Below, one piece after another: positions 190 through 1,503 of a stretch of DNA of 4,181 bases. Numbering within the stretch: the stretch's first letter is position 1; each line of letters begins with the position of its first letter. The translations under genes and the position numbers were made by a program. Origin of the DNA: a virus (taxonomy: Duplodnaviria > Heunggongvirae > Uroviricota > Caudoviricetes); IMG/VR virus record IMGVR_UViG_2695420430_000009, positions 1-4,181 of that record; one strand, written 5' to 3'. Under the pieces are notes generated by a model. That model had not been told where the DNA came from. It was given only the letters and a program-made list of their open reading frames with translations, and searched no databases.

Positions 190-1503
190 ATGGCAGTAAA
201 GATTTCAGGTGTGCTGAAAGACGGCACAGGAAAACCAATACAGAACTGCACCATTCAACTGAAAGCCAGACGTAACAGCACCACGGTGGTGGTGAACACG
301 GTGGCCTCTGAAAATCCGGATGAGGCAGGGCGTTACAGCATGGACGTCGAGTATGGTCAGTACAGCGTCACTCTGTTGGTGGAGGGATTCCCTCCATCAC
401 ATGCCGGGACCATCACCGTGTATGAAGATTCTCAACCGGGGACGCTGAATGATTTTCTCGGTGCCATGTCGGAGGATGACGTCCGGCCGGAGGCAATGCG
501 TCGTTTTGAACTGATGGTGGAAGAAGCGGCGCGTCACGCAGAGGAGGCGAAGAAGAATGCCGGAGAGGCGGAGACATCAGCGAGGAATGCCGGCATATCA
601 GCCAGTCAGGCAGAAGAGAACGCTGCAAATGCTGACACTTCAGCAGGGGATGCATCGGAGTCAGCCCGGCAGGCGGCAGAAAGTGCAGCCGCTGCAAAGC
701 AGTCAGAGGAGGCGTCCTCGTCCTCGGCCTCTGCGGCCGCTCAAAAAGCCAGTGAGTCATCACAAAGTGCAGCAGATGCTGAATTGTCAAGAAAGACGGC
801 AGAAAGTGCAGCCGGTAATGCAGCCAGGGATGCAACGACCGCAACAGAAAAAGCCCGGGAGTCAGCAGAAAGCGCACAGTCAGCGGAACAAAGCAGGATA
901 GCGGCGGAAGAGGCCGTAAACCGAATCCCCACCGTGGTGGGACCTCCCGGGCCAAAGGGGGAACAGGGGCCCGCGGGTCCTCAGGGGCCGAAGGGTGATA
1001 AGGGAGAGCGCGGTGACACCGGCCCTGTCGGGGCAACCGGCGAACGGGGACCGGCAGGTGATGCTGGTCCGGCAGGCCCGCAGGGGCCGAAAGGCGACAG
1101 GGGAGAGCGGGGAGAGACCGGGCTGACAGGAAGTACAGGTCCACAGGGGCCAAAGGGAGATACCGGGGCAACAGGCCCGGCAGGCCCACAGGGACCGAAA
1201 GGAGAAACAGGTGCGGCTGGCCCGGTGGGGGCAACCGGACCTCAGGGACCAAAGGGCGACCCGGGGGAGACACAAATCCGTTTTCGTCTGGGGCCGGGAA
1301 ACATTATTGAGACAAACAGCAATGGCTGGTTCCCGGATACAGATGGTGCGCTCATCACCGGACTGACCTTTCTTGACCCCAAAGATGCCACACAGGTTCA
1401 GGGGCTGTTTCAGCATTTGCAGGTCAGATTTGGTGACGGGCCGTGGCAGGATGTTAAGGGGCTGGATGAAGTGGGCAGTGATACAGGCAGAACAGGAGAA
1501 TGA
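190..1503 (+). CDS. Prophage side tail fibre protein (lambda Stf-like N-terminal domain, collagen-like repeats, short C-terminal domain)
   Basis: ORF-track ORF 184..1503; the likely true start is ATG 190, because the product then begins [16 protein letters not shown]... as lambda Stf does, and GGGGTG lies just upstream. N-terminal ~110 aa closely resemble lambda Stf; aa ~115-245 are Ala/Ser/Glu-rich low complexity (shaft-like); then 37 Gly-X-Y triplets and a ~75-aa C-terminal domain. Stop TGA at 1501-1503. Confidence 0.88.
940..1272 (+). repeat. Collagen-like Gly-X-Y repeat region inside the tail-fibre gene (37 uninterrupted triplets, recurrent GPQGPKG units)
   Basis: Translation [24 protein letters not shown]...[12 protein letters not shown] has Gly at every third residue; GPQGPKG recurs five times and is encoded by near-identical ~20-nt stretches. 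Confidence 0.85.

Follow-up and report, generated by a model that had tools for sequence, protein, structure and literature searches.

A collagen-like tract in a lambda-like E. coli prophage is very probably the stalk of an EPclA-type side tail fibre, with shorter alleles formed by deletions between repeat units

The closest described relative of the locus studied here is EPclA (EHEC prophage collagen-like protein A; ECs2717, ECs2941 and Z0982), described by Ghosh et al. (PLoS One 7:e37872; PMC3368898), and the role of this fibre, its architecture, its sequence motif and the triplet-wise differences in its length were all published there in 2012. Table 2 of that paper lists the EPclA copies in the prophages of O157:H7 strains EDL933 and Sakai, most of them 437 aa long with a PCoil of 116 aa and a collagen domain of 111 aa, and the collagen lengths across copies differ by multiples of three residues (63, 78, 81, 111, 114 and 144 aa) (PMC3368898). 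In the collagen domain, Pro dominates position X, Asp and Glu favour position X, Lys and Arg favour position Y, and a GP(Q/P)-GPK-G(D/E) pattern was already reported as recurrent (PMC3368898). Recombinant EPclA (ECs2717) is a trimer, as shown by ultracentrifugation, light scattering, circular dichroism (CD) and electron microscopy (EM) (PMC3368898). Its PCoil was shown experimentally to be a trimeric coiled coil, its collagen domain gives a triple-helix CD signal with a Tm of 42 C, its PfC domain trimerises and re-nucleates folding, and in rotary-shadowing EM the 111-aa collagen stalk measured about 30 nm (PMC3368898). A second protein, EPclB (ECs1228 / Z1483), is the tail fibre of the short-tailed Stx2 phages Sp5 and 933W; it has been located at the Sp5 tail by immuno-EM and is essential for Sp5 infectivity (PMC5155283).

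We analysed a stretch of 4,181 nucleotides from an IMG/VR virus record (IMGVR_UViG_2695420430_000009), hereafter the window, which represents the distal end of the tail module of a lambda-like E. coli prophage. Its features are listed in Table 1. As expected for a lambdoid prophage tail module, the closest complete genomes carry J, lom, the fibre gene and a short PfC ORF in this order. The closest of them, E. coli O39:NM F8704-2 (98.4% identity over 97% coverage), continues with NleG and the insertion sequence (IS). The profile PF06316 (Ail_Lom) was called at the lom position in related loci, and NZ_CP050998.1 and NZ_CP018237.1 carry an Ail/Lom annotation there. The terminator-like element behind lom has a stem of 8 pairs, 7 of which are G-C (152-173), followed by TTTTTGT. 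The 89-aa PfC ORF shares 37% identity with the PfC domain of the fibre itself and is kept beside the fibre gene in every related locus. Of note, in two homologues (P0009 and P0010, 494 aa) a frameshift joins this ORF onto the fibre. The equivalent ORF68 of phage Sp5 is among the non-essential genes and has been suggested to be a reservoir for fibre variation (Mondal et al. 2016, PMC5155283). Further downstream, the NleG gene looks like effector cargo at a prophage end, and in the same place other relatives carry TccP, NleH/NleF, DUF1076 or OspG-kinase genes. The copy of the IS256-family transposase in the closest genome, NZ_CP050998.1, is likewise annotated as frameshifted. The match to this genome ends at window position 4079, thus the far flank differs. 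Coordinate transfer from NZ_CP050998.1 also places the counterpart of an NleG-family pseudogene, partial and frameshifted, beside the IS on the minus strand (~2753-2882), which is probably a remnant cut by the IS insertion.

Table 1. Features of the window (positions in nucleotides from the first letter of the window)
Feature	Position	Strand	Remarks
lom (Ail/Lom outer-membrane protein), 3' end	1-124	+	Adjoins the fibre gene upstream, as in lambda
Terminator-like GC-rich hairpin and T run	152-178	+	Between lom and the fibre gene; pattern match only
Side tail fibre gene, EPclA type, 437 aa	190-1503	+	PF08400, PF01391 and PF06820
PfN domain, tail-attachment end	190-588	+	aa 1-133; PF08400, E=2.7e-69
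PCoil, Ala/Ser/Glu-rich low-complexity region	589-939	+	aa 134-250; length and composition from the translation
Collagen (Gly-X-Y)37 domain, uninterrupted	940-1272	+	aa 251-361, 111 aa; PF01391
GPQGPKGD, unit 1	976-999	+	Left junction of 8-, 14-, 19- and 26-triplet deletion alleles
GPQGPKGD, unit 2	1075-1098	+	Junction partner in 19-, 25- and 26-triplet alleles
GPQGPKGD, unit 3	1138-1161	+	Junction partner in 19- and 26-triplet alleles
GPQGPKGE, unit 4	1183-1206	+	Junction partner in 14- and 25-triplet alleles
GPQGPKGD, unit 5	1237-1260	+	Right junction of 8-, 19- and 26-triplet alleles
PfC, C-terminal globular domain	1273-1503	+	PF06820, E=1.5e-34, aa 363-426, 64/64 profile positions
89-aa ORF, second PfC domain	1505-1774	+	PF06820, E=4.6e-36; starts 1 nt past the fibre stop codon
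NleG-family type III effector gene	1883-2518	+	PF06416, E=1e-36; 38% GC stretch, 3' of the tail fibre genes
IS256-family (Mutator-type) transposase, frameshifted	2931-4156	-	Two ORFs, 3779-4156 and 2931-3710
Antisense ORF, 286 aa	413-1273	-	Judged spurious
Antisense ORF, 302 aa	880-1788	-	Judged spurious; spans two sense genes and the intervening gap

Over its whole length of 1314 nt, the fibre gene shares 96-99% identity with tail fibre genes of E. coli prophages and Stx-converting phages, among them tail fibre H0004 of phage VT1-Sakai (96.7% nucleotide identity), and matches were found in 378 phage records, mostly of Stx-converting phages. The PfN profile matched aa 1-133 (of 134 profile positions). 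Residues 1-93 (190-468) are matched with E=2e-52 by the PDB chains 9e7m_Ta/9mgh, 94 residues long and named 'Tail fiber protein', thus a solved structure of the tail-attachment end exists. Direct reading of the translation showed that the PCoil agrees in length and composition with the ~116 aa given for EPclA. The length of this region also varies in homologues, which have internal deletions of 41 aa (residues 163-203), 63 aa (159-221) or 28 aa (165-192). Of these gaps, the one of 41 aa does not fit the multiples of seven given as a rule in PMC3368898. Based on these data, the tract very probably is the collagen triple-helix stalk of an EPclA-type side tail fibre of a lambda-like E. coli prophage, whose short forms arose by deletions between repeat units. 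Judged by the ~96% identity to EPclA, the fibre would form a trimer with a true collagen triple helix, and the 37 triplets are predicted to form a rod of ~32 nm. By analogy with EPclA, PfC may act as the module for trimerisation and folding nucleation (PMC3368898), and it is likely the receptor-binding end. The protein module was therefore already known and experimentally characterised in 2012, and the finding, although real, is an ordinary one.

An earlier note on this DNA, made from the sequence alone, described 37 uninterrupted Gly-X-Y triplets and five copies of GPQGPKG(D/E), encoded by recurrent near-identical nucleotide units. The triplet run is exactly the longest in the fibre ORF, and all five motif copies were found (Table 1). 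When the order of the triplets was shuffled 5000 times, the motif count averaged 0.29 with a maximum of 3 (P<2e-4); since shuffling never gave more than three copies, the repeat is real at the protein level. The near-identity of the DNA did not hold up: the 24-nt units are merely 75-88% identical (mean 0.792), and shuffling synonymous codons gave the same value (0.793 +/- 0.014, P=0.52). The similarity of the units thus equals what the amino acids impose, and the repeat is one of protein and not of near-identical DNA. The tract, with 71% GC against 51% for the window, contains no recurring 12-mer; its longest exact direct repeat is 11 nt, compared to a mean of 13.6 nt after synonymous shuffling (P(<=11)=0.30). 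The best imperfect repeat spans 41 nt at 83% identity (982-1022 versus 1081-1121, offset 99 nt), with P=0.54 against the protein-preserving null and marginal values (P=0.04-0.11) when the shuffling destroyed the protein repeat. Tandem Repeats Finder returned a single array in the tract, with a 45-nt period, two copies and 77% matches, and a repeat search found families at 60-79% only. Selection against long exact repeats was also considered, and rejected based on the P value of 0.30 and on the 17-nt repeat that half of the 37-triplet alleles carry. Among 45 polymorphic sites in the tract, 34 fall on the third codon position of the sense frame, and this bias reflects purifying selection in that frame. 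The tract does not have the head-to-tail, near-identical short DNA units of a simple-sequence contingency locus, nor the frequent changes in copy number between close relatives that characterise such loci; its variants are discrete, rare deletions.

The earlier note also attributed long antisense ORFs to the GC-rich repetitiveness of the tract. These ORFs are indeed spurious, but their cause is a T-poor sense strand in both the coiled-coil and the collagen regions rather than repetitiveness: T makes up just 6% of the sense strand across the collagen domain and 12% across the PCoil. The lengths of 286 and 302 aa might speak for a real overlapping gene at 413-1273 or 880-1788, yet the protein and its codon usage lead one to expect stop-free antisense stretches this long. 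Inside the fibre gene they measure 296 and 207 aa, compared to 222 +/- 57 aa after synonymous shuffling (P about 0.11). Moreover, the polymorphism follows the sense frame, and the RefSeq annotations of two related loci contain no minus-strand gene at this position. We therefore give an antisense gene next to no probability.

To compare the number of triplets among homologous tail fibre genes, we used the best 120 cluster representatives, 79 of which were PfC-type proteins with intact flanks. The triplet counts were not identical throughout: these 79 proteins carry 4, 5, 8, 14, 15, 16, 19, 20, 21, 25, 26, 32, 36 or 37 triplets, and IMG/VR loci add forms with 27, 36 and 38, so PfC-type homologues span 4-38 triplets and fibre length varies between prophages and strains, as the earlier note had suggested. 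The 37-triplet form was present in 19 of the 26 alleles in the IMG/VR scan and matched best in about 700 of the 729 complete-genome records, making it the stable, modal allele. Relatives with another C-terminus (Pfam PF13884; NCBI label peptidase S74) have 9-38 triplets. One in-frame deletion from a 37-triplet form accounts for all 38 distinct shorter tracts, with no more than 3 aa mismatches. Of the 10 possible pairings of units, 7 were found as fusions (1/2, 1/3, 1/4, 1/5, 2/4, 2/5 and 3/5). In most shorter tracts the peptide at the junction is a repeated motif; besides the unit fusions there are tracts that join GPK/GPK, GER/GER, GATG/GATG or GPA/GPA. One close homologue with 34 triplets (P0090), on a contig of 3.5 Mb, bears the NCBI label 'collagen-like surface-anchored protein SclE [Streptococcus pneumoniae]'. 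For a fibre from an enterobacterial prophage, such a name points to contamination or a wrong label.

The junctions were then located in the DNA of ten of these variants and of three IMG/VR variants by comparison with sixteen distinct 37-triplet alleles, which mapped 12 deletion alleles and one allele with a single additional triplet. In each deletion variant, two diverged sites are joined as a left/right chimera, with 0-10 mismatches in the remaining sequence, and the crossover interval consists of 1-17 nt of exact identity within 20-30 nt of about 80% similarity. Compared with the 5,940 possible in-phase deletions, 10 of the 12 junctions rank higher than the 86th percentile for local left/right identity, and six are at the 98.6th percentile. 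The 27-triplet allele needs two events, and the homology at its junction is low in the window allele. That DNA junctions lie inside the repeated motifs suggests slippage or misaligned, relaxed recombination. One and the same unit is 97.4% identical across alleles, whereas different units within an allele are 80% identical, thus no homogenisation has taken place between the units, and the short forms descend from the long one. Efficient RecA recombination requires roughly 25 bp of identity. The longest exact repeat is 11 nt in the window allele and 17 nt in others, which makes classical RecA-type unequal crossing-over a poor fit. The events may have been intramolecular or may have taken place between the roughly ten prophage copies in a genome. 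In view of the modal 37-triplet form and the lack of homogenisation, the deletions must be rare. The tract is therefore a substrate for slipped or unequal recombination, as had been proposed, in so far as its length varies and the junctions lie in repeats, but the process is slow and biased towards deletion, and the tract is not hypervariable.

The shorter alleles could in principle be assembly artefacts, with repeats collapsed or mis-joined and a true tract that always has 37 triplets. Many homologues lie on contigs of 1-5 kb, short alleles often come from draft contigs of 1.3-5 kb, and the gene is present in several copies, at a median of 10 places in each genome that carries it. The 8-, 14- and 25-triplet alleles were seen on draft contigs only, and the 8-triplet junction was absent from the complete genomes searched by probe, so this allele rests on draft assemblies. 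However, the 19-triplet allele that joins units 1 and 3 is present in chromosome CP018237.1, which was assembled from PacBio RS II reads (PMC5359411), and its junction was uninterrupted in 1 complete record. The 27-triplet allele is common in complete O157 genomes: in the best complete O157:H7 hits, the 111-nt probe for its junction aligned in one unbroken piece at 100%, and ~234 complete records matched this probe at >=99% identity. These counts are approximate, since the 111-nt probes also reach 100% coverage on 37-triplet alleles when neighbouring pieces are joined, and records were therefore counted by number of pieces, span and identity band. In agreement with 27 triplets, 81-aa collagen domains have been reported for Sp11 and Sp12 in the finished Sakai genome (PMC3368898). 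In addition, 15-, 19-, 20- and 21-triplet alleles are located on contigs of 4.6-5.7 Mb, and the microhomology of 1-17 nt would be shorter than the k-mers expected for a false join by an assembler. An artefactual origin is thus improbable. The short-read collapse of the tract that the earlier note warned of is unlikely as well, since no 12-mer recurs in it; the actual assembly hazard lies in the roughly ten copies of the gene per carrier genome and not in internal repeats.

It could also be that the short forms are older, independent lineages and that the 37-triplet form arose by duplication in a tract that is expanding. Longer forms do exist (38 triplets in our data and 144 aa in Table 3 of PMC3368898), and the diverged higher-order repeats in the tract (families D1 and D2; 45-nt period) indicate that it was built by ancient duplications. 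However, recent duplication should leave near-identical copies, which is at odds with the 80% identity of units within an allele and the 97% of one unit across alleles. Moreover, the short alleles are exact chimeras in which two diverged units of an extant 37-triplet allele are joined, a signature of deletion, and the only gains seen are single triplets (GPA slip), so that we consider expansion very improbable. Another interpretation is that the variation reflects neutral decay, in which most carriers would be cryptic prophages that gather stalk deletions without selection or functional meaning. In line with this, EHEC genomes contain about 10 copies, many of them in prophages that are defective (PMC3368898), frameshifted or fused versions occur (P0009; EPclA* in Table 2 of PMC3368898; the out-of-frame tails of P0109-P0120), and the coiled coil has internal deletions too. 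On the other hand, the triplet phase and an intact PfC were kept in every recovered PfC-type variant, and substitutions are strongly biased to codon position 3, together indicating continuing selection on the protein. Neutral decay is possible, with the balance tilting against it; it bears on what the variation means, leaves the identity of the tract untouched and can hold alongside our main explanation of a collagen stalk shortened by deletions between units.

For this collagen stalk the following scheme can be proposed. Three chains would be held in register by the C-terminal PfC and the upstream coiled coil, and the 37 triplets would zip into a rod of ~32 nm that keeps the PfC knob, at the far end, at a distance from PfN, which is attached to the tail. 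The GPQ-GPK-G(D/E) units, with Pro at X and Lys followed by Asp or Glu, may serve as protein-level stability elements in a collagen that lacks hydroxyproline; this stabilising role is drawn from general knowledge of collagen peptides. Such a role would explain why the amino acids are conserved while synonymous sites have drifted. The short, imperfect DNA homology between units in the same triplet phase may then allow rare misaligned recombination or replication slippage, which would delete whole blocks of triplets and yield in-frame fibres of 4 to 36 triplets. The triplet numbers observed correspond, with about 0.29 nm per residue, to lengths of about 3.5 to 33 nm. We infer the stability role of the units, the molecular route of the deletions and any effect of length on adsorption. 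A further idea is that the five units provide in-phase breakpoints, so that lengths change in steps (~3.5 to 33 nm) and selection matches them to the thickness of the O-antigen or capsule of new hosts. We think this unlikely; if true, it would add a recombination-based tuning of fibre reach to the swapping of receptor-binding domains.

The lambdoid prophages that have this side tail fibre carry genes for Shiga toxin and type III effectors from one E. coli strain to another, thus the reach and stability of the fibre bear on phage adsorption. What is added here to the 2012 description is that the repeat is maintained at the level of the protein and not of the DNA, that the shorter alleles are single deletions between repeat units of a stable 37-triplet parent, and that the practical assembly risk comes from the number of gene copies per genome. 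The earlier note was right in direction, in that length varies by way of the repeats, and overstated the DNA similarity, the instability and the assembly risk.

Collagen-like regions are also found in more distant systems. The tail and receptor-binding proteins of dairy streptococcal and lactococcal siphophages form an adhesion device with a GXY spacer, and spontaneous deletions within their collagen-like repeats are tolerated; their flanking domains are unrelated to those of the fibre, and their hosts are Gram-positive. BclA of Bacillus anthracis and Scl1/Scl2 of Streptococcus pyogenes are hydroxyproline-free bacterial collagens in which, as proposed for the fibre, a globular trimerising domain nucleates the helix. 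The GXY repeat number of these proteins differs between strains and sets the filament length in BclA. The BclA structure 1wck gave a weak sequence match to the window protein. In contrast to the fibre, BclA and Scl are proteins of the cell or spore surface, with more uniform repeats (GPT-rich in BclA) and unrelated non-collagen domains. Lambda Stf (P03764) and K-12 StfR are closer, with a homologous PfN (about 91% nucleotide identity to stfR over the first 350 nt) and a fibre locus that follows J and lom. Lambda Stf carries Pf2 repeats, lacks a collagen domain and is followed by a Tfa assembly protein, whereas the window fibre has a stalk of collagen and a putative coiled coil, gave no match to PF03406 (Pf2 repeats) at E<=0.01 and is followed by the 89-aa PfC-only ORF; PfN is the only domain that the two share. 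EPclB has the PfN, PCoil, collagen and PfC modules and the adjoining 89-aa PfC ORF (ORF68), but with 645 aa and two collagen domains split by a Pf2 repeat it differs from the window protein, which has a single one. EPclA corresponds in the order of its domains (PfN-PCoil-Col-PfC), in its length of 437 aa, in its PCoil of 116 aa and collagen of 111 aa, in its motif and in its position in the prophage, and the nucleotide identity to the VT1-Sakai (Sp15) copy is 96-97%. The differences from EPclA are allelic substitutions only, such as GST in triplet 22 and GAT in triplet 26 instead of the common GNA and GAA, and a downstream cargo of NleG and an IS256-family element that differs from the Sakai arrangements.
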